A DNA stretch of 64,000 bases from an uncultured Gammaproteobacteria bacterium (GTDB taxonomy: Bacteria > Pseudomonadota > Gammaproteobacteria > JAIEPX01): positions 73,303-137,302 of the forward strand of contig CAZMLO010000006.1 in the NCBI GenBank assembly GCA_964567285.1. Direction: 5' to 3'. How positions within the stretch are numbered: the first letter of the stretch is position 1; each line of letters opens with the position of its first letter. The translations under genes and the position numbers were made by a program. This document shows positions 1 through 47,194 of this stretch, piece by piece. The notes under the pieces were generated by a model. That model did no database searches. It saw only the letters and a list, made by a program, of their open reading frames with translations, and was not told the DNA's origin.

Positions 1-1562
1 TTGAGGCTTTCGATTATAATAGTAAGGAGACGCATAAATTCATATATGATGTTGCTAAACTCATGTTAGACCATGGTAACGCACACGATGCTGTGAGATG
101 CTATAAAGAATTATTAGATATTCTTGAGTCATCACCCCATACAGAGCCTTTAAAAATCGGGATTTGTTTAAGGCATATGGGTCGAGCAATGCTAAATATT
201 AATTTAATTGAAGCAAGAGTTGTGCTTGAAAAAGCCTTACAGATTCTTCAAAAAAATAAACTCCCTACAGAGATTGGAATGTGTTTGAGCGACATCGGTT
301 TTTCTTTCTTAGACTCAGATGTTCCAATGGCTAGAGTTCAACTCGAACAAGCATTACCTGTTCTTAGATCAACATTGGGTAATCAACATCTTGAAGTGGG
401 GCTTTGTTTAAGGAGTTTAGGTTTTGTATTACTTAAGCTTAATACTCTGAATGAAGCGGAGCGTAGATTCGAAGAAGCATTGCCTATTCTCAAAAGAGAG
501 AAACACCCTCAGGCTGGGAATTGTTTACTTAATCAAGGGTCTATTATGATGACTAAAGACCCAAAAAGAGCAAAGCTACTATTTGAAGAAGCTTTGCAAA
601 TTCTCAAAACCACCTTTGGTGATAGACATATTGATGTTGCTAAGTGTTTGGCAAATCTGGGATGGACTAAACTGAATCTGAATGATTATGATAATGCCCT
701 GATACTGTTTAAGGATGCTTTACCAATCTTTGAAGAAATTCTAGATCAATATAATCCTGATATTGCCGGCTGCTTAATGGGTTTAGGAAGAGCCCTATTC
801 ATGTGTAAAAATCCCGAACAGTCAGTAAAATATTTAACAAGGGCCTTAGATATTTTTAAACGGTCTTTTCCTATGACTCATCATCATATACAAACATGTC
901 TAAGTTTTATATCAGAAGCAACACAAGCGTGTACTCTGCTCGATGATAGGAGGCTTGATCCAGCCAAAGCAATATGCGTAGCTGCCGCAGAGGGAACTGT
1001 TGAGGAATTACAAAGATTGCTAGCTATCAATAAAAAGTACGCCAATACTCCGGAGAGTGTTCCTGGTAAGAAGTTGACTGCACTACACTGCGCTGTAAAA
1101 GGTGGTCGATCAGAGCATGTCCGAGTATTGTTAGAAACAATAGGGTTTACTTCGGTAAAAGATGCTAAGGGATGCACTGCTTTAGATTATGCTATCGAGG
1201 GAAATGATATACAAATCTTACAATATTTCGCTTTTTCAATACTGAAACTGTATGAAAAAGAAACACACGATAATCAATATATGTTGCCTCTAGTCTGTGT
1301 AAAATCTAATAATGAGTCTGCTCTAAAGTTGTTAATTCATCTGAATTGGCCAATTGATGGTGTAGATCCAAAAACCGGGCAATCAGCATTACATGTAGCC
1401 GTTCTTCAGAGGAATATAAAATTCATAAAGATGTTAATAGAAGCTGGTGCAGATCCTCAGCTAGAAGATCACAAAGGCCAATCACCCATTACTTTGGCTG
1501 AAAATAGTCCCGATATATTGGAAATATTATCAATTAAGCTAAAACTGTCTTTGAATTACTAA
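1..1562 (+). CDS. TPR (kinesin-light-chain-like, ~42-aa period) + ankyrin-repeat protein, 5'-partial
   Basis: ORF 63..1562. In-frame codons 3..62 have no stop, so the N-terminus probably lies upstream of the window. About six repeats of the type A..FEEALPIL...H..VA.CL.NLG, followed by canonical ANK motifs (TALHCAVKGGRSEHVRVLLE; GQSALHVAVLQRNIKFIKMLIEAGADP). Confidence 0.7.
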   Translation, partial: EAFDYNSKETHKFIYDVAKLMLDHGNAHDAVRCYKELLDILESSPHTEPLKIGICLRHMGRAMLNINLIEARVVLEKALQILQKNKLPTEIGMCLSDIGFSFLDSDVPMARVQLEQALPVLRSTLGNQHLEVGLCLRSLGFVLLKLNTLNEAERRFEEALPILKREKHPQAGNCLLNQGSIMMTKDPKRAKLLFEEALQILKTTFGDRHIDVAKCLANLGWTKLNLNDYDNALILFKDALPIFEEILDQYNPDIAGCLMGLGRALFMCKNPEQSVKYLTRALDIFKRSFPMTHHHIQTCLSFISEATQACTLLDDRRLDPAKAICVAAAEGTVEELQRLLAINKKYANTPESVPGKKLTALHCAVKGGRSEHVRVLLETIGFTSVKDAKGCTALDYAIEGNDIQILQYFAFSILKLYEKETHDNQYMLPLVCVKSNNESALKLLIHLNWPIDGVDPKTGQSALHVAVLQRNIKFIKMLIEAGADPQLEDHKGQSPITLAENSPDILEILSIKLKLSLNY

Positions 1563-5710: not shown

Positions 5711-8700
5711 TCAATAGGCAACTTCCACGGCATCGTTGCCATAGAGATGCTTTAAACTCTGTATTAAATCATTTTTGGGAAAAACCTTCCACTCATCTCC
5801 TAACAACATTCGGGCCCTGCCCTCTGAATTTTGGTAATTAATCAATACTCGGCAAGAACCTTGTTGAAACTGACGCAAGGTCGATTGTAAAGTTGGCAGC
5901 GTAGTTTCCATATTGGATATTTGAGTGGCATCAATCAGTAACGATTTGGCAAATTCACAGCGTGCCATCGAGAGATCCAAGATTCGCCTAGCGCTCATAC
6001 GAAGTCCTCCGCTGAACTCATCGATACTCACTTCGCCATCGATAATTAATAATTGATCCGCTTGAAGTAAAGGCCGGGCTTCTTCAAAGACTTCTGAAAA
6101 TACAGCAACTTCAATGATATCTTTACGATCTTCGATTTTCACAATGGCCATACGAGTATTTCGTTTAGTCATGAGTGTTCGAACGCTCACCACATAACCG
6201 GCCACCAACACTGTTTTTTTACGTTCGGTTGGTCGCAGGCTCGAAATATCATTGCTGATAAATTGGCGCAGTTCTTTTTCATATTGTTGAATAGGATGAC
6301 CACTTAAATAAAAACCGAGGGTTTCTTTTTCAGCTTGTAACCGTTCATCATCTCGCCAAGCAGGCACGCTCAGATATTCGACCTTAGTCGCCACATTCGT
6401 AGTAACCGCCATACCAAACAAATCTTGCTGACCAAATTCTTGATTTTTTCGGTGCTGATCGGAATAACGAAAGGCACTATCAATACTGGCTAATAAACTC
6501 GCTCGATGAGTGCCAAAATGATCCATCGCTCCTGCTTTGATTAAAGCTTCCAGCACACGACGATTCACTTTGCGCGTATCGACACGTTGGCAGAATTCGA
6601 ATAAATCCGTAAATGGCCCTTCTTTTCGCGCCTCTATAATATTATCAATGGCGGCTTCTCCCACGCCTTTTAAAGCACCTAAGCCATAAATTAAATGGGG
6701 TTTGCCGTTCGAAACAGATTGATAGTTCACAGTAAATTTATAATGGCTTTTATTCAGATCCGGTGGCTCAACCACCAAACCATTTTCTTCAGCATCTAAA
6801 ATAAAATTCACAACTTTATCGGTATTATCCATATCAGAAGATAAAACGGCTGCCATAAATTCTGCTGGGTAATAGGTTTTTAACCACGCTGTTTGATAGG
6901 ATAATAATGCATAAGTCGCTGAGTGCGATTTATTAAAACCATAGCCCGCAAATTTTTCCATCAAATCAAAAATTTGATTGGCTCGATCTTCAGGCACTTC
7001 TCGTTCTTTGCAACCGGTCACAAAAATTTCACGCTGCTCTGCCATTTCTTCCGCTTTTTTCTTACCCATTGCGCGACGTAATAAATCGGCAGCACCTAAA
7101 GTATAGCCTGCTAAAAATTGCGCAATCTGCATCACCTGCTCTTGGTATAAAATCACCCCATAAGTGGGTTTTAAAATGGGTGCTAAATCAGGATGCAAAT
7201 ATTCAACTCGTGCACGGCCGTGTTTACGATCGATAAAATCATCTACCATGCCCGATTGTAATGGACCGGGACGAAACAAAGCGACCAAGGCAATAATTTC
7301 TTCAAAAGCATCGGGTTTTAAGCGTTTAATTAAATCTTTCATGCCGCGGGATTCAAGCTGGAATACTGCAGTTGTGTTGCAGGCTTGCAGTAATTTAAAC
7401 ACTTTTTGATCGTTGAGGGGAATGGCTAAAATATCGATCGGTGTCTGACCTTGGTGTTGACGATGTGCATTAATCGTTTGGAGTGCCCAATCAATAATAG
7501 TCAGAGTACGTAAACCTAAAAAGTCGAATTTCACTAAACCTACGGCTTCCACATCGTCTTTGTCAAATTGCGTTACCAAATTTTCGCCGTTTTCTTCGCA
7601 ATAAAGCGGCGTAAAATCTGTTAATTTTGAAGGGGCAATCACCACACCACCGGCATGTTTTCCAGCATTACGAGAAATGCCTTCCAATTTTAGGGCCAAA
7701 TCAATCAGTGTCTTCACTTCTTCTTCGTTATAATAGCGGTTGAGCAATGTTTCGTCTTGTTTTAAAGCTTTTTCAAGTGTCATCCCCAACTCAAAGGGAA
7801 TTAATTTAGCGATTTTATCGACAAAACCGTAGGGATGTGAAAGTACCCGCCCCACATCGCGTACCACCGCTTTGGCCGCCATAGAACCGTACGTAATAAT
7901 CTGAGCCACACTGTCACGACCGTATTTTTCCGCCACATATTCAATGACGCGATCACGCCCCTCCATACAAAAATCAATATCAAAGTCCGGCATAGAAACG
8001 CGTTCAGGATTTAAAAAGCGCTCAAATAGTAATTCAAATTCGAGTGGATCAAGATCAGTAATATCCAGTGAATAAGCCACCAAAGAACCTGCACCAGAAC
8101 CCCGTCCTGGCCCCACCGGAATATTATTTTGTTTGGCCCACCGAATAAAATCTGCCACGATTAAAAAATAGCCTTCGAATCCCATAGAAGTGATGACATC
8201 GAGCTCTACTTCGAGACGATTAAGATATTCTTGTTTTTTTTCATCTGTCAGAGAAGCAGATGATTGTCTGATTTTTTCTAGACGATTATTCAATCCATTC
8301 CGAGCTTCACGTCGAAAGAATTCATCCGTTGTCATCCCTTCAGGAACGGGAAATTTGGGCAAATAATTTTTGCCAAGCGTTAAAGGGAGTGTGCATCGTT
8401 TAGAAATTTCAACAGAATTTTCCAGTGCTTCTGGAATATCCGCAAACAATGTGGCCATTTCTTCAGGCGTTCGGAGATATTGTTTCTCACTGTAAAGACG
8501 GGGTCGAGAAGGATCTTCAAGGGTGTAACCCCCATTAATGCAAACCCGCGCTTCGTGTGCTTCAAATTCATCAGCTTCTAAAAATCGCACATCGTTGGTG
8601 GCAACCACAGGCAATTGGAATTTTTGGGCCAACTGCAGATTGAGCTGCACTAGCTTTTCCTCATCAGCCCGTCCCGTCCGAATTAATTCCAAATAAAATC

Positions 8701-9966: not shown

Positions 9967-10071
9967 CCTCTACTTCCTTGTTAACATTGTACCCATGCTA
10001 GGGGTCAAAACTTGCTGATCCTAGCAAAAGCTGCGAGAATTGTCGTCTATTTTTCGAGAGGGGTTTTTATT

Positions 10072-11037
10072 GTGAAAAAATGTCGTGTTGCTGTTGTCGG
10101 TGTGGGTTACTTAGGTCAGTATCATGCCGAGAAATTTTCACAATCGCCTCAAGCAGAGTTAGTCGCGGTTTGTGACCATAATCCCGAACGTGCTGATGAA
10201 ATTGCGTCTAAATTAGGCGTGCAAGCGGTTTATGAATATCATGAACTGGTGGATCTCGTTGATGCAGTCAGTGTTGTTGTACCCACTTCATTGCACCATA
10301 AAGTCGCTAAATTATTTTTAACTGAACATAAACATGTATTATTGGAAAAACCACTGACACGATCCGTGGAAGAAGCAAATGATTTGATTCAAACTGCTAA
10401 TGCCAATAATGTAATTTTGCAAGTCGGACATTTAGAGCGATTTAACCCTGTCGTTAAAGCAATTTCTCCGTTAATCAATCATCCGCGATTCATTGAATGC
10501 ATTCGCGTTTCACCGTATAAACCGCGTGTTACTGACATCAATGTGATACTGGACGTGATGATTCATGATATTGATTTACTCTTAAATTGGCTTAAATCAC
10601 CGATTAAATCCATCAGTGCTCGAGGCTCAAAAGTTTTAACCGATCGCATTGATTTTGCGAACGCTCATTTAGAATTTGAAAATGGTTGTGCTGCGAATAT
10701 TACGGCCTCACGCGTTAGTTCAAAATCCCAACGAGAAATTAGAATCTCCCAACACGATGCCTACATCGAAGGCGATCTACAACAGAAAAAATTATTCATC
10801 CACCACAAAAATCACGACGAACCCCACAACTCCCTCATGCAAGAAGAAACTTTCGATCTCGGCGATGCCTTACGCGACGAATGCGAAGCCTTTCTCTGCA
10901 GCATCCTCAACAACACCCCACCCCAAGTTCCCGCCGAAGCCGGCCGCTCTGCCCTCATCACCGCCCTAGATATCACCCGAATTATCGCCGAACAATTGGC
11001 CGCTGATCATTCAGAAGCTCCTGCTCATGCAGGCTAA
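10072..11037 (+). CDS. Gfo/Idh/MocA-family NAD-dependent oxidoreductase (possible UDP-GlcNAc 3-dehydrogenase GnnA-like)
   Basis: Rossmann start (V)KKCRVAVVGVGYLGQYH and the EKP motif (LLEKPL). GTG at 10072 preferred over the ORF-track start 10012 because a GAGAGGGG SD lies ~8 nt upstream. Adjacent to lpxB. Confidence 0.8.
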   Translation: MKKCRVAVVGVGYLGQYHAEKFSQSPQAELVAVCDHNPERADEIASKLGVQAVYEYHELVDLVDAVSVVVPTSLHHKVAKLFLTEHKHVLLEKPLTRSVEEANDLIQTANANNVILQVGHLERFNPVVKAISPLINHPRFIECIRVSPYKPRVTDINVILDVMIHDIDLLLNWLKSPIKSISARGSKVLTDRIDFANAHLEFENGCAANITASRVSSKSQREIRISQHDAYIEGDLQQKKLFIHHKNHDEPHNSLMQEETFDLGDALRDECEAFLCSILNNTPPQVPAEAGRSALITALDITRIIAEQLAADHSEAPAHAG

Positions 11038-11092
11038 ATGAATTGGTACGGTATTGATCCTGATTAATTTTTAATCATAATCATGACTTGAC

Positions 11093-11121
11093 TTGACTTG
11101 ATTAACCAGGGGATATATAAT
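11093..11121 (+). promoter_or_regulatory. near-consensus sigma70 promoter of the toxin-antitoxin pair
   Basis: TTGACT (11093-11098), 17-nt spacer, TATAAT (11116-11121). The -35 lies inside three tandem ACTTG pentamers (11086-11100). The -10 ends 5 nt before the toxin ATG (11127) and there is no SD, so the mRNA may be leaderless. Confidence 0.5.
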
Positions 11122-11126
11122 TACAT

Positions 11127-11399
11127 ATGTGGAAGGTTTATGAGAAGAAAACCTTAGTTAAAGAACTCCGTAATGTACCGACTCACGTTTTACAGGATTA
11201 TGAAGTGTGGAAACGAATTGTTGAGTTGGATGGCCTAGAAGGTCTTCGATTAATTAAGGGTTTTCATGACGAAGCACTCAAAGGAGAATGGAATGGTTAT
11301 CGCTCATCACGTCTTAATAAACAATGGCGAGTGATCTATATCCCTAAGCCAGATCACTTTGAAGTTTTTGTAGTAGAGGTTAACCCTCATCAATATTGA
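11127..11399 (+). CDS. RelE/ParE-superfamily toxin (HigB-like gene order, toxin first)
   Basis: 90 aa. C-terminal half is LKGEWNGYRSSRLNKQWRVIYIPKPDHFEVFVVEVNPHQY, typical of RelE-fold mRNA interferases. It sits 3 nt upstream of an HTH antitoxin gene. Confidence 0.75.
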   Translation: MWKVYEKKTLVKELRNVPTHVLQDYEVWKRIVELDGLEGLRLIKGFHDEALKGEWNGYRSSRLNKQWRVIYIPKPDHFEVFVVEVNPHQY

Positions 11400-11411
11400 G
11401 AGGTGCACAAA

Positions 11412-11678
11412 ATGAGTATTAATTATAAAGATTTTATCAATTCCCGTGTGCATACCAAAGTCACACCCGGGGAAGCCTTAAAAATAATTCGCGAGCTTCA
11501 AGAAATTTCACAAAATGAACTCGCTAAAGCTACCGGTATTTCTCAATCTAACATCTCCGCCTTGGAGCACGGAACTGCACAAATGGGCAGAGTCACCGCC
11601 ATAAAATTAGCCCAAGCATTGCATGTACATCCTGCTGTACTACTCTTTCCTGATTATGATATTCAGGAAGCTGCGTAA
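11412..11678 (+). CDS. XRE-family HTH antitoxin (HigA-like)
   Basis: HTH segment ISQNELAKATGISQSNISALEHG. ATG at 11412 has a GAGAGG SD 8 nt upstream; the ORF-track start is GTG 11403. Confidence 0.75.
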   Translation: MSINYKDFINSRVHTKVTPGEALKIIRELQEISQNELAKATGISQSNISALEHGTAQMGRVTAIKLAQALHVHPAVLLFPDYDIQEAA

Positions 11679-11766
11679 ATTCTTGATTCTGAAAATCATT
11701 GCTTAAAAAGATCGCAATATCTGATAAAATTCCTTATTACATTGATTATCCTTTGAGAGGCTAATT

Positions 11767-12918
11767 GTGTCGACTGACCAACTCGATATTCTGATTATTA
11801 CAGGCGAACCGTCTGGGGATATGCATGCCGCGAGATTGGTGCGGGAGTTGAGGGAGCGGGAGCCGGGGCTGCGGATTGGGGCTATGGGTGGTGAGCAGTT
11901 GGCGGCGGCTGGGGCAGAGATTATTGTTGATCATCGTGGGATGGCGGTGATGGGATTTGTAGAGGCTTTTAAGATTTGGCGTCTGATCCGTCGCGCTTTT
12001 AAGCAGTTGAAAAAGGCTATACGTGAACGGCGTCCTCGATTGGTGATATTGGTAGATTATTCTGGATTTAATTTACCGATGGCGAAATTTGCCAAATCTC
12101 AGGGCTGTCAGGTGCTTTATTATATTGCACCGCAGGTATGGGCTTGGCGCCAGGGTCGGGTGCATAAAATCAATCGTTGGGTCGATACTTTGGCGGTGAT
12201 TTTCCCTTTTGAAGTGGAATTTTATCGAGGTTTTAATCGGCTAGCGCATTTTGTTGGGCACCCTTTGGCCAAAGAACCCCTCTGCTCCTTGACCCCTGCT
12301 CAGGCAAAATTTCAGTTGGATTTAGCACCTGCTCAGCCAGTCATTGGATTGGTACCGGGAAGTCGCATGGCAGAAGTCAAAGCAATTCTGCCGACCCTCT
12401 TATCTGCAGCCGCTAAACTCTATGCAGAAAATCCAGAACTGCAATTTGTTTTACCCCGCGCTTCTACCATCGATACCCTTTGGGTGGAAGAGCAAATCGC
12501 TCAGCACAGTCTCCCGATCAAAGTCATTTCAACAGATCGATATACCACTCTCCAAGCGTGTGACATTGCTTTGGCTGCCAGTGGTACTGTCACTTTGGAA
12601 TTGGCACTCTTAGAAAAACCGATGGTTATCGTTTACAAAGGAAATCCCCTCGCCTTTTGGCTAGCAAAAAAATGGGTAAAGCTGGATCATGCTGGTCTAC
12701 CCAATATCATTGCAAAGCGAGAAATTGTCCCTGAATTACTGCAACATGATTTCACTATAGAAAAAATTTATAAGCACGTTCAGGAACTTCTCCTAAATGA
12801 GAAGGAATATCAGCGTCAAAAAAATGAGTTAATGAAGCTACAGCAAACGTTGAACTCAGTTACTCCGAAGTGCTCATTATCAGAATTGGTTATTGAGCGC
12901 TTAATGCAGCCTAAGTGA
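11767..12918 (+). CDS. lpxB: lipid-A-disaccharide synthase
   Basis: ILIITGEPSGDMHAARL, DYSGFNL, YYIAPQVWAWR and GTVTLELAL motifs. GTG start. Confidence 0.93.
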   Translation: MSTDQLDILIITGEPSGDMHAARLVRELREREPGLRIGAMGGEQLAAAGAEIIVDHRGMAVMGFVEAFKIWRLIRRAFKQLKKAIRERRPRLVILVDYSGFNLPMAKFAKSQGCQVLYYIAPQVWAWRQGRVHKINRWVDTLAVIFPFEVEFYRGFNRLAHFVGHPLAKEPLCSLTPAQAKFQLDLAPAQPVIGLVPGSRMAEVKAILPTLLSAAAKLYAENPELQFVLPRASTIDTLWVEEQIAQHSLPIKVISTDRYTTLQACDIALAASGTVTLELALLEKPMVIVYKGNPLAFWLAKKWVKLDHAGLPNIIAKREIVPELLQHDFTIEKIYKHVQELLLNEKEYQRQKNELMKLQQTLNSVTPKCSLSELVIERLMQPK

Positions 12919-12949
12919 CTATAAAAAATATCGGGAGAAATTCATCGTA

Positions 12950-15790
12950 TTATTTTGGTAAAGACGTGAGTGTTGAGTTATTTGATGATAATAATAAATT
13001 GAGTCGTTTCTGAATGCAATCGACAAGTTCTACCTCATAGGGCCTTAACAGATCAAGAGCTTCAAGACAAAGCGACTCTTTTTCGGATATATTTCCAAGC
13101 GATTCATGAGATTTGGCCATGAAGTACAAAATATTAACTCTCATAAGAGGCAAAGATTGAAGACTGGTTTTGCTTAGGCATTCACTCAAGCTAGCCAGTG
13201 CAATTTGCGGCTGGCCCCCATACAAAAGAATGAGTGAGTAGTTGAATAACAAAGATATATGCCATTTCGAAATCGCACCTTCTTTTTTCAAAATACTCTC
13301 TAAGTGTGATAATGTTGAAGGCAAAGTATCTTTATCATTCATTCTTTCAATTGAGGCACAATTAAAATCACAAGCCTGTATCATAATATGATCAGAAGGA
13401 TAAAAGAGTTTTAAATGATTACGGCTGTTATCGTAATATCTTAGTGCCTGAGCTGTATCACCCGCGTATAAATAAGCATCCCCTTGGCGGTAATAAATCC
13501 AACCTAGAAAATCACTAAAATCTTGAAAACTCTCTGTAATTAATTGTTTTGCCACAATAAAACACTGTTGTGCGGCAGAGGGGTTACCCAAATGCAGTTG
13601 CAAATCGCCTAAATTATAGAAAGGGTAGAATTTCGAGGGGTAATTCTCCCCTGCTTCAAAAAATATCTTTATCGATAAATGGAGATGTTGGAATGCGCCT
13701 TTGAGATCCCCTTTATATTGATTGATCGAAGAGAAATTATTATAAGCCATGGCTAGATCTGTGGAGGAGGGAAAACGACTTTTATATATTTCAATAGCTT
13801 TAATATAATAAGGTACTGAAGCATCACGTTCATCTTGCTTATTCAGAGTTATTGCATAACCGACATAAGTGAGAGCTAACAAATAATAACATAAATTTTC
13901 AGGTTCCAGTTTTTTTCCCAAACAATAATTAATTTCTTTTTCTGCTGACAAAAATCCTTGGGCAGCACTTTTTAGAGCATTAAGATTATAGTTGGCATAA
14001 GCTAAAAATACTCGCGCAATGATAAACTCAAAACCACCCGCAAAATATGATTCTTTTTTTTCAATTGAAGCCATTAGATACTCAACAGAAAGAGTAAACT
14101 GGCCTAGATGATAATAAATTATTCCTAGACAACTCAATACGGAAGTATAGAAAGGATCAGACTGAAGGTGCAATTTTTTGATATGCTCCAAAATACTGAG
14201 TAGATGAGGAATAAGTAGTCTCCGTACTTTGAATTCTTCGGTAGTCAAAACTCTTTTTACAGGTGTAAGCGATTGAAAACTGCTGGTTATATCATGAATT
14301 AATATTCGTGAATTTAGATTGATAATACTATGATTATTTGCATGTCGGCTTTGTACTGCTAATTGAGTGAGTTTATGAATACATATTCCCCCCTCAGAGT
14401 CCCAAACTAATCCAAACATTTTTAGTAAGGATATGGCTGAATTCAAAGATTGAATCTCTGGAATGATACATAATAAGATCTCTAAAGGAATAGTAGTATG
14501 TAAATAGGCTATTCGTTCCAATAAATAGAGGGTTTTTTGAGGATTGGGACTTGCTTCTATAGCCTCTATTGTCATTTCTATAGTGCGCCTAATCGTACAT
14601 TGATGGTCTACCGGCCCTTTCTCGTGTGTCCAAGCGGTATGAGGATTTTTATTAAAGTCATCGATATATTTCCGTACTGATATCCTGCCATTCGAATTTT
14701 TAATATAAAAACCTGCCTGACAGATAGGTAGAGCTAGCATACCTAATGTTTCGCCAAGGACAATCAATTCTGAATCAGTAGCTTGAACTGTATCCCGAAA
14801 AAGAGCACGTAGGACGGCTATAACATCCTCTTTCTCAAAAAGGGGTAAAGGTCTTACTCTAACTTGTTGCCAATCAGGATTTGTTGTTGTAATGAGTACA
14901 TGACCAACACCGACACAACGAAAGGGTAATAATTCCTTAACCTCTTCTTCTTTTAGGACATCTTCTATGACTAAGAGCCAATTCAAAGGGGTTTCTTCTA
15001 AAAATCGTCTAACATTTTTAGTAATGGCTACAATTGAACAATTGGTCCAGTGAATTTTTTTTGAGACTTCTTCCTCTCCGAGGGAGTGATTAATTTCTTT
15101 TGCCAGATCAGTAATGTCATTTTCAAAATTGCGAAAGGATAGATAAAAAATAATATGATAATTATTTTTTACAGTCTCGCAAAACTTTCGACTCAATTGT
15201 GATTTACCTGCTCCACTATGTCCAGTAATAGCACGGGTTATGACCTGATGGGGTATCATAGGAAAATCATCAATCAAAATTTTTAATTCTCTCACCCTAT
15301 TAACAAAATAGAGAGAAGGATTTTCTGCGTTACAAATGATCAGCTTATCCGTTCCCTGTGCAACATTTTTATTAACAAAAAAGGAAGCCTTTGTAGCATT
15401 TTGAATTAAGCCTCTTGAAAAATTAGGTTGAGGCAAAACAATTTGTGTTTGAATATAATTAATGGTGGATTTCGGGGTTTCGGAACTTAAAACAATATCA
15501 ACATTGGTTTTTATTGCTTCAATTTCCTTAACATCTAAATGACTCAGTCCTTCTAGAATTTTCGCTTCAAATGTTGTATTTGTTTCCGTAGCGCTAAGCT
15601 TTATAATATCCAACAAAAACCCTTTGAGAGACTCTGAAAGTTCGAGTCTATCAAGGCTATCTGTAGTAACAGAGAGATGTGATTGTTTCAGTCGAAGTAG
15701 TATTTCGCTTAGCCAAGGGGGTGGGGGTGTGTTTGTGCTCTTGAATTGAGGAGATAACTGTTCAGGATTTTGAAGAGCTAGTTTTTGCAT
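12950..15790 (-). CDS. STAND (NB-ARC-like) P-loop NTPase with C-terminal TPR array and an unassigned ~160-aa N-terminal domain
   Basis: 946 aa. FVNRVRELKIL precedes Walker A GHSGAGKS (aa 190-197, nt ~15200-15223). Walker B is WLLVIEDV and an NB-ARC-like motif HVLITTTN follows. The C-terminal ~400 aa are TPR-like (YYHLGQF..A..Y, YKGDLKGAFQHL, YAGDTAQALRYY). The start lies 3 nt after the stop of the radical-SAM gene. Confidence 0.8.
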   Translation of the reverse strand: MQKLALQNPEQLSPQFKSTNTPPPPWLSEILLRLKQSHLSVTTDSLDRLELSESLKGFLLDIIKLSATETNTTFEAKILEGLSHLDVKEIEAIKTNVDIVLSSETPKSTINYIQTQIVLPQPNFSRGLIQNATKASFFVNKNVAQGTDKLIICNAENPSLYFVNRVRELKILIDDFPMIPHQVITRAITGHSGAGKSQLSRKFCETVKNNYHIIFYLSFRNFENDITDLAKEINHSLGEEEVSKKIHWTNCSIVAITKNVRRFLEETPLNWLLVIEDVLKEEEVKELLPFRCVGVGHVLITTTNPDWQQVRVRPLPLFEKEDVIAVLRALFRDTVQATDSELIVLGETLGMLALPICQAGFYIKNSNGRISVRKYIDDFNKNPHTAWTHEKGPVDHQCTIRRTIEMTIEAIEASPNPQKTLYLLERIAYLHTTIPLEILLCIIPEIQSLNSAISLLKMFGLVWDSEGGICIHKLTQLAVQSRHANNHSIINLNSRILIHDITSSFQSLTPVKRVLTTEEFKVRRLLIPHLLSILEHIKKLHLQSDPFYTSVLSCLGIIYYHLGQFTLSVEYLMASIEKKESYFAGGFEFIIARVFLAYANYNLNALKSAAQGFLSAEKEINYCLGKKLEPENLCYYLLALTYVGYAITLNKQDERDASVPYYIKAIEIYKSRFPSSTDLAMAYNNFSSINQYKGDLKGAFQHLHLSIKIFFEAGENYPSKFYPFYNLGDLQLHLGNPSAAQQCFIVAKQLITESFQDFSDFLGWIYYRQGDAYLYAGDTAQALRYYDNSRNHLKLFYPSDHIMIQACDFNCASIERMNDKDTLPSTLSHLESILKKEGAISKWHISLLFNYSLILLYGGQPQIALASLSECLSKTSLQSLPLMRVNILYFMAKSHESLGNISEKESLCLEALDLLRPYEVELVDCIQKRLNLLLSSNNSTLTSLPK

Positions 15791-15793
15791 AAT

Positions 15794-16951
15794 TTACAGG
15801 GGTTTTGTCATCTTATTTAAAACTACGTCCGTTAGTACTTGTACTGTAAGTTTGCATTCAACTGTTTCAGTTGTATCAAATCTCCCGTGCTCATAAAATT
15901 TATTAGAAGGTGATCCCCCGCCGCATAGATCAAAATAATCACAGCTTTCTGCACAGTTCTTTATACCTTGGGTAATGGAGGCTAGTTGTTGCTGAAAATC
16001 AAGTGATTTTTCTAGCTCTTCAAATCGCTTAATATTGAGGACGTTTCCAATTACAAATTTCTGGGGTTCGTTAGGAGTGCCACCGGCCATTTCTGGTGAA
16101 AATGTAGTTACATTACCATCTTTAGATATTGTTATAACACAGAATGCCACAGTTACATCCTTGGGAAATACACGATCCGGTGAGTGCTTTTTAATTAAAA
16201 GAAGTTGTCCTACGCCATTAATTTCTCTTATTTCCATAGCTCTACCATCAGCATCCCACAGATCATAAAGCCTTTCGAAAAACTCCTTATATCTTTCGAT
16301 TAGTCTCTGTCCAGATGTACCTGATAATGCAGCTCCGTAACTTGAGCTCTTATTATCGCCGTCTTGTTCGTCAATATTAAAACTGATTGATTCAAAGCCT
16401 TCAGTTTTGTAAAATTGAAAAATCTCGTCGGGATAATCAAGGCTGTAATCGGATAGGACCGCTATCGATCTTAAAGGGATATGATGCTTCTTCAGGTAGC
16501 TAACGCCTTGCATTGCTTTGTCGAAAGACCCTTTATTTCCCCACGTCTTTCTAAATCGATCATGAATATGGGCTGGTCCATCAATACTAACAGTTGCTTG
16601 GTAATTATATTCCCTGAAAAAGTCACACCATTCATCATTAATTAAAGTGGCATTGGTTTGGATACCCATATGAAATTTTCTGTTATAGATATTACACTTC
16701 TCGACTAATCTGTTAGCATTTTTATAAAAGTCTATCCCCGCCACCAAAGGTTCACCCGCATGCCAAACAAAGTTTATTATATCTTCATCATCGGTTGGTT
16801 GTGTTACTTCGCTCTCAAAAACGCAACGAAGAGCTCCAATGAGTACTTCGTCAGACATCAGTTGTTTATTTTTTCTGTCTGGAACATAGCAATATGAACA
16901 ATTTAAGTTACAAAAATTGGTAGGTTGCAATACAACAAGAGATGTTATCAT
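15794..16951 (-). CDS. radical SAM / SPASM-domain peptide-maturase-like enzyme (anSME superfamily)
   Basis: 385 aa. LQPTNFCNLNCSYCYV gives Cx3Cx2C at aa 14-21, followed by WHAGEPL. The C-terminal Cys cluster CAESCDYFDLCGGGSP...VEC is typical of SPASM/twitch auxiliary Fe-S sites. Confidence 0.85.
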   Translation of the reverse strand: MITSLVVLQPTNFCNLNCSYCYVPDRKNKQLMSDEVLIGALRCVFESEVTQPTDDEDIINFVWHAGEPLVAGIDFYKNANRLVEKCNIYNRKFHMGIQTNATLINDEWCDFFREYNYQATVSIDGPAHIHDRFRKTWGNKGSFDKAMQGVSYLKKHHIPLRSIAVLSDYSLDYPDEIFQFYKTEGFESISFNIDEQDGDNKSSSYGAALSGTSGQRLIERYKEFFERLYDLWDADGRAMEIREINGVGQLLLIKKHSPDRVFPKDVTVAFCVITISKDGNVTTFSPEMAGGTPNEPQKFVIGNVLNIKRFEELEKSLDFQQQLASITQGIKNCAESCDYFDLCGGGSPSNKFYEHGRFDTTETVECKLTVQVLTDVVLNKMTKPL

Positions 16952-16966
16952 AGCAAATGATCTTCA

Positions 16967-17215
16967 TTACCACTTAAGTTTGAAAGCATTGAAAGCACAG
17001 TATGCTTGATAACTAGTGTTGACTCTAAGAATCGGAACTCTATCTTCATCTTCAGGTTTGATTTCGTTCAAGTCATCTAAAATACGATTTTTTGTCGGTC
17101 GTGGAGTAATAAATAAGGGGTAATACCCTTTTTCAACGAATTGTCTAATCCGCAAATTTGTTTTTCCATCCGGTTGCTCAATTGGGTCTTCTTTATCATT
17201 ATTTTCTGTACTCAT
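16967..17215 (-). CDS. 82-aa candidate RiPP precursor peptide (acidic leader, aromatic period-3 C-terminal core)
   Basis: GGAGA SD 6 nt upstream of the ATG. The stop lies 15 nt upstream of the radical-SAM start. The C-terminus is ...NTS-YQA-YCA-FNA-FKL-KW. Confidence 0.55.
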   Translation of the reverse strand: MSTENNDKEDPIEQPDGKTNLRIRQFVEKGYYPLFITPRPTKNRILDDLNEIKPEDEDRVPILRVNTSYQAYCAFNAFKLKW

Positions 17216-17467
17216 CGGGTATCTCCATGAATAATATCTTGAATATGTTATATTATAATTTTAAATTTGTATATAGTGTTCATTGCATCTAAACTAAATA
17301 ATCAATAGTCTAACCATTATCGTAGCACACCAAAATATTATTAAATATTCAGCAGCTACTGCCCATTGATAGGTAATTTATTACACGACTTTCAGAATAC
17401 AGCCACTTGATAATTTTATGAAAAGTGATACTGTTCTACTTCCATTAACTAAAAGGAGAATTATTCA

Positions 17468-17902
17468 ATGAACTCAATCAAAAAAGCGATCCTGGTTGGT
17501 AGCAGTGTTTTAGCAATCGTTTTTGCTGCAAATTCTGCGCTAGCAGTGGGGCATAATGGTCACAAAGGTCATGCAAAAATCTGGAAAGACCAAGGACCAA
17601 ACATCGTAGTAACAGCTGATCCTAGCGATTTTGCTTACTCTATGAAATTAAAGTATGTACTCAAGAACAATGCTACTGGCAAACCGGTTAAAATTGACGT
17701 TGATCAAGCTGGCGTTGCTAACGCGCTTGCTCAATTGCAAACAGTCGGCACAGGCAACGTTCTTGTGATCAAAGAACTGTCTTTCAAAGATGCTAATGGC
17801 AAGAAATTAGATAATTGCAACATGATCAAAAACTCTGCTTTTGTCAGTGGTGCTTCTTCTGTTTCTATCGCTATCAGCGCAAACGGCTGTGTTGTACAGT
17901 AA
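17468..17902 (+). CDS. small secreted protein of unknown function (Sec signal peptide)
   Basis: AAAGGAGA SD. Signal peptide is MNSIKKAILVGSSVLAIVFAANSALA/VG. The mature N-terminus is His-rich (HNGHKGH). Two Cys lie near the C-terminus. A strong terminator follows. Confidence 0.7.
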   Translation: MNSIKKAILVGSSVLAIVFAANSALAVGHNGHKGHAKIWKDQGPNIVVTADPSDFAYSMKLKYVLKNNATGKPVKIDVDQAGVANALAQLQTVGTGNVLVIKELSFKDANGKKLDNCNMIKNSAFVSGASSVSIAISANGCVVQ

Positions 17903-17913
17903 TTTTGCTCTAT

Positions 17914-17943
17914 AAAAAAGGGGGCTCTTAGCCCCCTTTTTTT
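17914..17943. terminator. bidirectional rho-independent terminator
   Basis: aaaaaa-GGGGGC-tctta-GCCCCC-ttttttt, located between convergent genes (17902 + / 17955 -). Confidence 0.8.
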
Positions 17944-17954
17944 ATGTCGGAAAA

Positions 17955-35489: not shown

Positions 35490-36341
35490 TTAAAAAGAAG
35501 GTCCACTTAGGCTATTAGATTGAGATTTTATGAGGGCAGTAAGAGTATCCAAATTGGATGATTGTCGATTCTCTTCTTCAATATGGGCGCGGGTTGTGAC
35601 AATGATTTTTTCTATTAGCTCGGCAGGTAAATTATTAGCTCGATCGACACCTTCAAAGTTACCTGAGATTAAAAAAGCCAGTTGTACAATAAGTGGTTTC
35701 GGTAATTTCACGTTTATGAAAGTATCTAAACACCGACAGAGAAGTTTATCTTGATCATCGAGTGTTAACGTTGAATTTTCTAGTATCCATGCCGCACATA
35801 CAAATTGTCCGAAATAGAAAGCATAAAACAATACAGTACGATCGATATTATCTTTTGCACTTAGTAGTTCCGGTTTTTTTTCACTGAGCGATTTGAGTAA
35901 TTCTATCTGTCCCCCCATTGATGCTAAGTGCATAACGTTAGCACCCGCGGAATTACGCTGAGTAAATAACTCATCACCTAATAAAGCGTCTAATGCATCT
36001 TTATTACCAGCGAATGCTGCCAATTCCCAAGCACTCTCCATTTGCTCGATGAACGGACTGATTGTAAAAGATTCGGCAGGTGGGCCAATTTGAAAAGAAA
36101 GGGATCGCATCAACTTCACTTTATTTAAGGGATATCTTTTAAAAATTTCTGCATTTAATAAGCTTGAAGGTATACTTTGGAGATAATGATTAGGTAATGC
36201 TCTTTCAATGATCACCTTTCTCCATGCCCTTGAAACCCCCATGAATGGACGTAGTTGAGCGGGTTTAAAGAATTGGAACACGCAAGCCAGCACGTCTGGG
36301 GATGGTGCGAACACGGCAGATTGTTCATCTTCTTCTTTCAT
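35490..36341 (-). CDS. F-box + ankyrin-repeat protein (eukaryote-like, AnkB-type architecture)
   Basis: F-box: SPDVLACVFQFFKPAQLRPFMGVSRAWRKVII (aa ~14-47). ANK: GANVMHLASMGGQIELLKSLSE... and DRTVLFYAFYFGQFVCAAWILE. Confidence 0.8.
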   Translation of the reverse strand: MKEEDEQSAVFAPSPDVLACVFQFFKPAQLRPFMGVSRAWRKVIIERALPNHYLQSIPSSLLNAEIFKRYPLNKVKLMRSLSFQIGPPAESFTISPFIEQMESAWELAAFAGNKDALDALLGDELFTQRNSAGANVMHLASMGGQIELLKSLSEKKPELLSAKDNIDRTVLFYAFYFGQFVCAAWILENSTLTLDDQDKLLCRCLDTFINVKLPKPLIVQLAFLISGNFEGVDRANNLPAELIEKIIVTTRAHIEEENRQSSNLDTLTALIKSQSNSLSGPSF

Positions 36342-46642: not shown

Positions 46643-47194
46643 ATGGCCTCAATTTCGCGCTTCATACTCTTGTCCTTTTCCCTTATCGCGTTGACCTGGA
46701 CCTTCGAAGCGAAGGCAAAACCCCCACAAATTTGCTATTGCCCCTGTCCTACGGCTCCTGTTGTCAACTTGAAAGACCCTAAAATTGGACCCATTCGATT
46801 ATTAAATTGGGTGAGTGACGCTGCCACCCTGTCTTTCCATTACGACTATCGTGACATCGAGAAGTGGATGAGGGAATATTCACCCTACTTCGACACCCGC
46901 GGTTGGTTTCATTACTACCAAGCACTCAAGAATTCAGGCAATCTAGAGAAAGTCGCTCAAGATCAAATTACAGTCAGTTCTGTACCGCTAGCACCCGCTA
47001 CAGTCCTCTGGGAAGGGGTTGATTTAGAAGTATACAAATGGCGTGTACAAATTCCTTTGCTTGTTCAGTACCAATTTGCTTCCGGGAAACTTATTCAACA
47101 GAAGATGTTGGTCAATATGTCGTTGCGTAGAATACCTGATTCTCTCGGTAAAGATGGCATTGGCATTGAGAGATTTATTGCGAAACCAATTTAA
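46643..47194 (+). CDS. IcmL/DotI-family protein (type IVB secretion-related paralogue), signal peptide
   Basis: The pattern W..DA...SF.YDY......YF...GW..Y..AL..SGNLE.V......VSSVP.APA......G...Y.W.VQIPLLVQYQ......GIGIE.FIA mirrors my recollection of Legionella IcmL/DotI. No other dot/icm genes lie nearby. Confidence 0.6.
   Translation: MASISRFILLSFSLIALTWTFEAKAKPPQICYCPCPTAPVVNLKDPKIGPIRLLNWVSDAATLSFHYDYRDIEKWMREYSPYFDTRGWFHYYQALKNSGNLEKVAQDQITVSSVPLAPATVLWEGVDLEVYKWRVQIPLLVQYQFASGKLIQQKMLVNMSLRRIPDSLGKDGIGIERFIAKPI

Follow-up and report, generated by a model that had tools for sequence, protein, structure and literature searches.

Cyclophane-containing peptides that are made by ribosomes and modified after translation (RiPPs), or triceptides, form a large and recently defined class whose biological roles are almost entirely obscure. 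To our knowledge, the large tetratricopeptide repeat (TPR) or signal transduction ATPase with numerous domains (STAND) proteins that neighbour triceptide RiPPs have been noted and never tested. Here we describe an operon encoding a short peptide, a radical S-adenosylmethionine (SAM) enzyme and a STAND protein in an uncultured Gammaproteobacteria bacterium (assembly GCA_964567285.1, contig CAZMLO010000006.1, positions 73,303 to 137,302 of the forward strand). This stretch of 64,000 nucleotides (nt) is hereafter called the window.

The OscA/OscB triceptides were described by Nguyen et al. 2020 (as summarised in PMC11002830), and OscB is reported to join Trp-C7 or Phe-C4 to the C-beta of an Asn or Asp at position i+2 (PMC11002830). 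HaaB and HtkB accept Ala or Lys at position 3, and HaaB forms its cross-link to the C-beta of Ala (PMC11499958). In E. coli, triceptide synthases process their precursors without a partner (PMC11499958, PMC11002830). HtkC, the product of the third gene of the HtkA/HtkB/HtkC cluster, co-purifies with the precursor and added no modification to it (PMC11499958), and one NCBIfam model is named 'cyclophane-containing RiPP biosynthesis TPR protein HaaT' (NF041717, Haa/Htk clusters). A parallel architecture is found in the FxSxx peptide-processing systems described by Kaur, Burroughs, Iyer and Aravind (eLife 2020). These comprise a small peptide, a zincin peptidase and a radical SAM-SPASM enzyme, always occur with an AP-ATPase carrying C-terminal TPRs, and are located either inside vWA-MoxR ternary conflict systems or standalone in actinobacteria; the processed peptide was proposed to be a toxin or an amplifying signal (PMC7159879). 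The association of a peptide and radical SAM enzyme with an AP-ATPase/TPR protein is thus already recognised and comes with a hypothesis, and a first-pass annotation of the DNA studied here went too far in calling the role of the STAND/TPR partner never explained. Our literature search on FxsA/B/C and on radical SAM enzymes with STAND, NB-ARC or TPR proteins found no experimental work on the partner.

The same first-pass annotation had claimed three packed minus-strand genes, and we found them at the same coordinates: open reading frames (ORFs) of 946, 385 and 82 amino acids (aa) with intergenic gaps of 3 nt and 15 nt, the peptide gene having the claimed Shine-Dalgarno sequence of its own.

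12950-15790, minus strand: STAND protein, 946 aa
15794-16951, minus strand: radical SAM enzyme of the GrrM/OscB family, 385 aa
16967-17215, minus strand: precursor peptide, 82 aa, with the Shine-Dalgarno sequence GGAGA at 17222-17226, 6 nt before the ATG

The reading as an operon of a peptide, a peptide-modifying radical SAM enzyme and an NB-ARC/TPR STAND protein was borne out, and the arrangement recurs in four metagenome contigs (L001-L004). Judged by sequence, this is not an Fxs system but a triceptide RiPP pair of the GrrM/OscB family, joined by an AP-ATPase/TPR partner of FxSxx-like type. We think it probable, on balance, that a minimal RiPP module of triceptide type is connected here to a dedicated switch resembling nucleotide-binding leucine-rich repeat (NLR) proteins.

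The radical SAM enzyme carried all motifs that had been reported for it, namely FCNLNCSYCY, HAGEPL and NCAESCDYFDLCGGG...EC, and two groups of cysteines could be located.

16889-16912, minus strand: CX3CX2C motif of the radical SAM enzyme, residues 14-21
15854-15955, minus strand: four auxiliary-cluster Cys, residues 333-366 (Cys conservation)

Over residues 8-382 of its 385 it passed model TIGR04261 (GrrM/OscB cyclophane-forming radical SAM/SPASM peptide maturase) with 364.9 bits against a cutoff of 310. It stayed below the NCBIfam cutoffs of AmcB (277 vs 425), FxsB (TIGR04269, 103.6 vs 370), XyeB (97 vs 450), DynA and YhhB. We therefore class it as a putative triceptide-type enzyme of the GrrM/OscB family rather than an Fxs enzyme. 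The earlier reading as an Fxs-like system did not hold, given these scores and a peptide that does not end in FxSxx; there was no HEXXH motif in any of the three operon proteins, Pfam found no TIR, vWA or MoxR domain, and the operon is surrounded by housekeeping genes. What remains of the likeness to Fxs is the parallel architecture and the best model match of the STAND protein (NF040586, see below). Across 116 homologues, C14, C18 and C21 were 97% conserved, and C333, C337, C343 and C366 were 100% conserved as the sole conserved C-terminal Cys, which is sufficient for one auxiliary cluster. This set is reduced in comparison to the seven Cys of SPASM, and the Pfam SPASM model had no match on the enzyme. 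Altogether 1207 homologues were found, the nearest with 43-51% identity, and enzymes at least 43% identical to this one are rare, since a set of 5.8 billion proteins contains only about 30 clusters of them at the 90% identity level. PADLOC gave only weak pVip matches for it (31.9 and 17 bits; PDLC02903, PDLC02904).

The closest PDB entries were an anaerobic sulfatase maturase (4k37, E=1e-25) and ChlB (9gm3). The first of these, together with 173.1 bits against the sulfatase maturase model (TIGR03942), would be in line with the enzyme being an anaerobic sulfatase maturase or another protein modifier for which the small ORF is no substrate. We consider this extremely unlikely. The score is far under the cutoff of 349 whereas the GrrM/OscB model is passed, no sulfatase gene lies nearby, a conserved precursor family is encoded upstream, and the single auxiliary-cluster Cys set is unlike that of sulfatase maturases. 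The grouping with this enzyme family that the first-pass annotation had raised against its own interpretation was hence not found.

We take the 82-aa ORF to be a real precursor peptide, with the following predicted parts.

17117-17128, minus strand: leader motif G30-Y-Y-P33 in ...QFVEKGYYPLF... (alignment of eight peptides)
16970-17014, minus strand: predicted core S-YQA-YCA-FNA-FKL-KW-COOH with four aromatic-X-X triplets, at the extreme C-terminus

In each of the eight distinct close-clade loci that were readable, the radical SAM gene has a small ORF (77-119 aa) as its immediate upstream neighbour. G30 and P33 are the sole invariant columns other than Met in the alignment, and the motif G[FY][FLY]P occurred in 8/8 clade loci compared to 1/130 other GrrM/AmcB-type loci (p=3e-12). 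Aromatic residues of the window peptide are concentrated at its C-terminus, where they occupy five of the last 15 positions as opposed to 4 of the remaining 67 (p=0.009). The peptide matched no NCBIfam or Pfam model, and none of the clade peptides, including this one, has a signal peptide, while many precursors of the wider family show a signal peptide followed by long WxN or DPF repeat arrays. Clade relatives carry three to five aromatic-X-X triplets after the leader (WRN, FSN, FRN, FRD/FAN/FNN, WVD/WGS). By reference to the chemistry of OscB and HaaB (PMC11002830, PMC11499958) the triplets of the window core are putative cross-link sites. Their third position is Ala or Leu, while relatives carry WRN, FSN, FRN and FAN; this appears unlike OscA and nearer to HaaA. 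The window peptide and those of L010 and L092 stop at the core or just after it. Three other precursors of the clade run past the aromatic core into an acidic, Asn/Glu-rich tail of 20-30 residues that ends in a hydrophobic-basic-Arg sequence (LSFKR, VGFRR, ISLKR).

L005, 5623-5922: peptide gene with such a tail
L007, 5679-5987: peptide gene with such a tail
L091, 7606-7881: peptide gene with such a tail

The third gene encodes a protein of three parts.

15416-15733, minus strand: N-terminal module, residues ~20-125, no Pfam match, probably all-alpha
14174-15331, minus strand: NB-ARC/AP-ATPase module, residues 154-539 (motif alignment, Pfam, NF040586)
12950-14113, minus strand: C-terminal TPR array, residues ~560-946 (Pfam TPR_12, TPR_2, TPR_10, TPR_1)

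The STAND motifs listed in the first-pass annotation (YFVNRVREL, GHSGAGKS, LLVIEDV, VLITTT and the TPRs) were found again. An alignment with STAND proteins of related loci showed the NB-ARC motifs F-x-x-R, Walker A, Walker B, LxT[ST], GxLPLA and IHxLxQ in this order, and in the window protein they are represented by Walker A at G190-S197, the Walker B LLVIED, LITTT, a GLPL-like motif and the MHD-like IHxLxQ. Pfam recognised NB-ARC (PF00931) just over its cutoff (24.5 vs 23.5 bits) and TPR_12 with 1.9e-18. The best NCBIfam match was the FxSxx-system TPR protein model NF040586, which remained below its cutoff (91.5 vs 300 bits) and was limited to residues 162-440 of the NTPase part (4.8e-26). 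Profile matches of the NTPase in the PDB were AfsR as the closest, NRC1, Roq1, the archaeal TPR sensor PH0952 and Apaf-1. In our reading the protein is a canonical NB-ARC ATPase that also has TPRs and, at its N-terminus, a presumably helical domain without annotation. An exact look-up of the STAND protein returned no record, and the locus was recovered via the radical SAM enzyme. An exhaustive HMMER search returned 2546 relatives at a threshold of E<=1e-3, a number that fell to 330 at E<=1e-10. The window protein is a very divergent member of a large family, because none of these relatives exceeded 30% identity. Word-seeded searches returned only the protein itself and one 23% match for the full sequence and nothing for a six-sequence NTPase profile, both reflecting the limit of the prefilter, as HMMER found 330.

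The N-terminal domain recurs at 31-46% identity, again N-terminally, in seven proteins (P0136, P0138, P0142, P0147, P0158, P0179 and P0224). These are NB-ARC proteins and one NACHT protein, several of them also with C-terminal ankyrin repeats. An AlphaFold2 model from an alignment of eight sequences had low confidence (mean pLDDT 54) and four helices, and a Foldseek search of this model against the PDB gave nothing below E=6.9; the domain is probably all-alpha. One of these proteins, P0138 (1206 aa, N-domain, NB-ARC, TPR and ankyrin repeats), is located together with HipBA between surA and lptD on contigs that come from metagenomes in which the window locus is also present. It represents a second insertion of a STAND gene and a toxin-antitoxin pair inside a conserved envelope-biogenesis gene block.

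L173, 3380-7000: P0138 locus
L174, 1919-5539: P0138 locus

For the linkage of STAND genes to this type of enzyme we took a census of 166 distinct loci around GrrM/AmcB-type radical SAM genes, which were screened with an iterated profile of the NTPase module. The clade was counted as the window, L009, L005/6, L007/8, L090, L091 and L010, and other loci needed at least 6 kb of flanking sequence. A homologous STAND gene was present within the available flanks of six of the seven clade loci compared to 3/111 others (Fisher one-sided p=1.7e-7); the three exceptions were two actinomycete AmcB systems (L056, L062) and one Rhodopila locus. The three genes, whose co-conservation the first-pass annotation had proposed to check, are hence co-conserved at the level of this clade. 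Gene order varies considerably. The STAND gene follows the radical SAM gene directly in the window (3-nt gap), lies immediately upstream of the peptide gene in L005/6, L007/8 and L090, is convergent and 3.3 kb downstream in L091, and is present once on each side of the peptide and radical SAM genes in L009. Between lineages, the radical SAM enzymes share 45-52% identity and the STAND modules 25-33% in their NTPase part, and the peptides can be aligned over local stretches only. A linkage kept through such deep divergence and several rearrangements argues for function and not for one inherited accident. The coupling to STAND proteins is thus real but specific to this clade, and the three genes are a coupled unit. 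The faster divergence of peptide core and STAND protein than of the enzyme is weakly compatible with a co-diversifying pair of ligand and receptor.

Taken together, we propose the following mechanism. The 82-aa peptide would be translated and recognised via its leader (...KGYYP...), the conserved motif for which a role in recognition is suggested. The radical SAM enzyme would take a C-beta hydrogen at residue i+2 and link this C-beta to the ring of the aromatic residue i, which may result in up to four three-residue cyclophanes in YQA-YCA-FNA-FKL-KW, as we infer from the family membership of the enzyme and the chemistry of OscB and HaaB. As neither a signal peptide nor a protease or exporter is encoded in the operon, the product is most likely retained inside the cell, still bearing its leader and ending in a rigid aromatic tail. 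The NB-ARC/TPR protein is a genuine partner of this clade of peptides and enzymes, since their linkage is conserved across deeply diverged loci despite rearrangement. It most likely captures the peptide with its TPR arm and would then switch state or oligomerise, depending on nucleotide, and thereby activate its N-terminal module; MalT, AfsR, Apaf-1 and Avs, together with the FxSxx model proposed by Kaur et al., are the analogies that make such a switch most likely. We consider it more likely that the STAND protein reads or uses the peptide than that cross-linking depends on it, because triceptide enzymes are active on their own in E. coli and L092 has the same leader but no STAND gene. A further step, which we put forward only tentatively, is that the stapled peptide is a self-encoded ligand, cognate to a bacterial NLR-like receptor. 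A rigid aromatic epitope would then be read by a fast-evolving TPR arm, flipping the NB-ARC switch and activating the N-terminal module.

Several points weigh against this proposal. Every biochemical step in it is drawn from sequence comparison and analogy. Position 3 of the core triplets is Ala or Leu and not Asn or Asp, and therefore the specificity of OscB-type enzymes is not simply transferable. The closest relative of the radical SAM enzyme (L010, 51%) has no STAND gene on its contig, which ends 0.8 kb after the enzyme gene, and L092 (enzyme 43% identical, same leader) has none within 8 kb and an aspartyl-protease-like gene instead. The TPR region shows no detectable similarity to the TPR regions of related loci. 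A neighbour-joining tree of the NTPase modules, which asked for an origin from STAND proteins linked to radical SAM genes or from the N-domain paralogues, was set aside with saturated distances and uninformative bootstraps; it placed the window protein as sister to the linked STAND proteins in only 9/100 bootstraps. The STAND family is abundant in such genomes, also without any radical SAM gene (L173-L178), and two N-domain paralogues come from the very metagenomes of the window locus, neither beside a radical SAM gene. Some of the adjacency could therefore be opportunistic. Taken to its end, the STAND gene would be one of many eukaryote-like NB-ARC/TPR/ankyrin paralogues in a genome of Legionellales type, possibly encoding a Dot/Icm-translocated effector, that landed by an independent RiPP pair. 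The two nearest NTPase relatives in the whole database (P0134 and P0162), which are not linked to a radical SAM gene, agree with this, as do another protein with TPR and ankyrin repeats at the left edge of the window and a DotI/IcmL gene within it. We nevertheless regard coincidence as quite unlikely. The 3-nt gap and shared strand argue for co-transcription, the enrichment described above extends across lineages with less than 52% identity of the enzyme and varied gene orders, and the same coupling is found in FxSxx, AmcB (L056, L062) and Haa systems.

Related loci offer variants of the STAND partner. In L005-L008 and L091 the STAND-TPR part makes up the C-terminal half of a giant that exceeds 1,850 residues (2,331-2,384 aa as called in L005-L008), whose N-terminal part consists of AMP-binding, PP-binding and thioesterase domains (A-T-TE) as in nonribosomal peptide synthetases (NRPS). 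At least three clade loci (L005/6, L007/8 and L091) hold this fusion. The same architecture was observed in L178 as a split gene pair amid housekeeping genes with no radical SAM gene nearby.

L005, 1-5553: A-T-TE-STAND-TPR giant
L007, 1-5610: A-T-TE-STAND-TPR giant
L091, 12465-17176: A-T-TE-STAND-TPR giant
L178, 3000-7804: A-T-TE-STAND-TPR architecture as a split gene pair

We found no published description of this architecture. The STAND part of the L005 protein passed the cutoff of the FxSxx TPR model (315 vs 300). The N-terminus is the output position of STAND proteins, and in this clade it is occupied by the NRPS-like enzyme or, in the window, by the helical module.

These fusions also allow for a biosynthetic interpretation. 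The STAND-TPR protein could be a scaffold or tailoring partner that presents the precursor, with the A-T-TE domains acylating, aminoacylating or off-loading the peptide, and what the window encodes would be a pared-down scaffold or chaperone that the RiPP needs to mature efficiently or to remain stable, without signalling. The giant gene lies directly upstream of the peptide gene and in the same orientation in L005 and L007, peptides of A-T-TE loci share the hydrophobic-basic-Arg C-terminus, HaaT is called a biosynthesis protein by NCBIfam, and HtkC was pulled down with its precursor (PMC11499958). On the other hand, the window STAND lacks any enzymatic domain, RiPP scaffolds are not known to include an NB-ARC switch, co-expression of HtkC left the peptide unchanged (PMC11499958), L092 has the same leader and no STAND, and the A-T-TE-STAND architecture also occurs away from any radical SAM gene (L178). 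We consider the scaffold unlikely and retain the peptide-reading switch as the preferred interpretation.

Accessory genes differ between these loci. A protein of about 275 aa with an HxD...H pattern neighbours GrrM/AmcB-type radical SAM genes in 23 loci across phyla and is missing in the window.

L005, 7122-7952: ~275-aa HxD...H protein
L007, 7124-7969: ~275-aa HxD...H protein
L090, 5366-6193: ~275-aa HxD...H protein
20 further loci: ~275-aa HxD...H protein

It matched no Pfam or NCBIfam model; its pattern is suggestive of a metal triad of the Fe(II)/2-oxoglutarate type, and a tailoring function in triceptide clusters is likely. An ABC transporter in L091 and a protease in L092 are likewise absent from the window operon, which appears to be the most stripped-down form, with no peptidase, oxygenase, exporter or enzymatic fusion. 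In L009 a cluster of YcaO, nitroreductase and small-ORF genes, of a second RiPP type and on the opposite strand (1-2260), adjoins the STAND-peptide-radical SAM-STAND run. A guess that the C-terminal part of the 840-aa STAND protein of L009 is TIR-like was dropped, as PDB sequence search, Pfam and PADLOC did not support it. Downstream of the L010 radical SAM gene a SET-domain protein is encoded (6394-7074; PF00856, 5e-9), within which the contig ends. As a methyltransferase domain of eukaryote-like type, SET is typical of effectors of the Legionella type.

The genomic setting of the operon is an insert of low GC content beside a toxin-antitoxin pair.

12919-17954: low-GC insert from lpxB to lpxA, with the operon and an unrelated 144-aa ORF (composition profile)
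17216-17467: divergent AT-rich intergenic region of ~250 nt, likely operon promoter
17468-17902, plus strand: 144-aa ORF with a signal-peptide-like N-terminus, divergent from the peptide gene
11767-12918, plus strand: lpxB, convergent with the operon
11127-11678: toxin-antitoxin pair, RelE/YafQ-like and HTH_3, 1.27 kb from the operon
10012-11037: Gfo/Idh/MocA oxidoreductase

The AT-richer DNA claimed earlier was confirmed by the composition profile, with a GC content of 0.34-0.38 at about 12.5-17.9 kb and 0.42-0.47 in the flanks, and the distance of about 1.3 kb given for the toxin-antitoxin pair agrees with our measurement. Of this pair the HTH_3 antitoxin is solid, while the RelE/YafQ-like toxin fell under the Pfam cutoffs. 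The lpx block had been described as interrupted; there is indeed an insertion, yet the adjacent segment is also inverted. The segment of oxidoreductase, toxin-antitoxin pair and lpxB is reversed relative to the bamA-skp-lpxD-fabZ-lpxA run, and with lpxB on the plus strand the block is therefore an inverted segment plus insertion. The whole block from 10012 to 12918 is opposite in strand to this run and to rnhB-dnaE, so that the insertion was accompanied by inversion. At the insert borders no direct or inverted flanking repeats, tRNA or integrase were detected. The oxidoreductase appears to occupy the position at which UDP-GlcNAc 3-oxidases of GnnA type are located in some lipid A clusters. The 144-aa ORF was considered as a fourth operon component and rejected, as it has a counterpart in no related locus; it is restricted to contigs of the source organism, without a homologue in about 170 related loci, and matched nothing in Pfam, NCBIfam or PADLOC. 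Weak sigma-70-like sites were seen on the minus strand at 17365-17337 and 17344-17316, and promoter and terminator scans showed no enrichment over shuffled sequences.

In support of the host association claimed before for the source organism, other parts of the window encode a DotI/IcmL homologue and proteins with ankyrin repeats; these point to a Legionellales-type bacterium.

46643-47194, plus strand: DotI/IcmL-type inner-membrane component of a type IVB secretion system (PF11393, 1e-31), alone beside rluC/plsX-like housekeeping genes
35490-36341, minus strand: ankyrin-repeat protein, its N-terminus F-box-like by eye
3-1562, plus strand: protein cut by the left window edge, its last 519 residues with TPR_12/TPR_10 and then ankyrin repeats

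The first two fit with a Legionellales-type intracellular lifestyle. The protein at the left edge is probably another NB-ARC/TPR/ankyrin paralogue of this genome, because its C-terminal architecture equals that of the STAND paralogues P0134, P0138 and P0224.

An insert next to a toxin-antitoxin pair might also indicate a defence neighbourhood, in which an FxSxx-like conflict system would use the modified peptide as toxin or alarm and the STAND protein as an Avs/NLR-like sensor-effector causing growth arrest or death. Kaur et al. 2020 placed FxSxx and AP-ATPase-TPR modules among NTP-dependent conflict systems. The insertion of paralogue P0138 with HipBA, the much faster divergence of STAND protein and peptide compared to the enzyme, and the adaptor- or effector-like shuffling of the N-terminal domain among NB-ARC and NACHT proteins would fit as well. 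However, the defence role suggested earlier found no direct support. PADLOC-DB 2.0, which covers Avs and other anti-phage STANDs, assigned no family to the window STAND protein or peptide and only trivial TPR or sub-threshold matches to five related STAND proteins. Neither vWA-MoxR, TIR, peptidase or nuclease domains (Pfam, motif checks) nor a recognisable effector were found, and the A-T-TE fusions of relatives look biosynthetic and not toxic. We therefore judge defence to be unlikely and return to the peptide-reading switch.

The locus shows the coupling of a peptide, a cyclophane-forming radical SAM enzyme and an AP-ATPase/TPR protein assembled again around a GrrM/OscB-type enzyme in Legionellales-like bacteria. 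It represents a rare occurrence in proteobacteria, beyond the actinobacterial FxSxx context in which comparative genomics alone had described the coupling. With no peptidase, oxygenase, exporter or enzymatic fusion, the three-gene minimal form is convenient for asking whether an NLR-like protein reads a modified self-peptide. The giants of the sister loci represent an unreported architecture and suggest that an NRPS-like module can be put under the control of a STAND switch. If the stapled peptide does act as the ligand of the STAND protein, this would be the first RiPP-gated STAND and would explain the recurrent STAND/TPR partner of FxSxx, AmcB, Haa and GrrM-like systems.

Compared to the GrrM/OscB triceptides, the window shares an enzyme passing the family model, a precursor immediately upstream and an aromatic-X-X core. 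Typical members have signal-peptide or 'GIDP' leaders and long WxN or DPF arrays, whereas the window precursor belongs to a distinct family with a cytoplasmic-type G-[FY]-[FLY]-P leader and, in its clade, three to five triplets. Position 3 is Ala or Leu instead of Asn or Asp, the STAND partner is found in this clade only, and the common ~275-aa HxD...H gene is missing. The Haa/Htk clusters similarly combine a cyclophane-forming radical SAM enzyme with a third large TPR or uncharacterised protein, and the Ala at position 3 of three window triplets resembles HaaB. However, the window STAND had no HaaT match at E<=0.01, its enzyme is of another subfamily, and the aromatic residues are Tyr and Phe as opposed to His. 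AfsR, MalT, PH0952 and Avs/NLR proteins share the full-motif NB-ARC followed by a C-terminal TPR sensor arm. The window STAND differs from them in having no DNA-binding, nuclease, protease or TIR output and no PADLOC match, and a radical SAM-modified peptide ligand from the same operon, as proposed here, is without experimentally shown precedent among them.

The FxSxx systems (Haft; Kaur et al. 2020) finally are similar in their combination of a small peptide, a cyclophane-type radical SAM enzyme and an NB-ARC/TPR STAND protein, in the location of the core at the extreme C-terminus of the peptide, and in NF040586 being the best curated match of the window STAND, with the L005 homologue passing its cutoff. 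They differ in the subfamily of the enzyme and the family of the precursor, which in the window ends in F-K-L-K-W and not in F-x-S-x-x-COOH, in the zincin peptidase, TIR and vWA-MoxR context that the window lacks, and in their actinobacterial hosts, in contrast to a Legionellales-type proteobacterium. A last difference concerns the output, which in the present clade would be a novel helical domain or an A-T-TE module.

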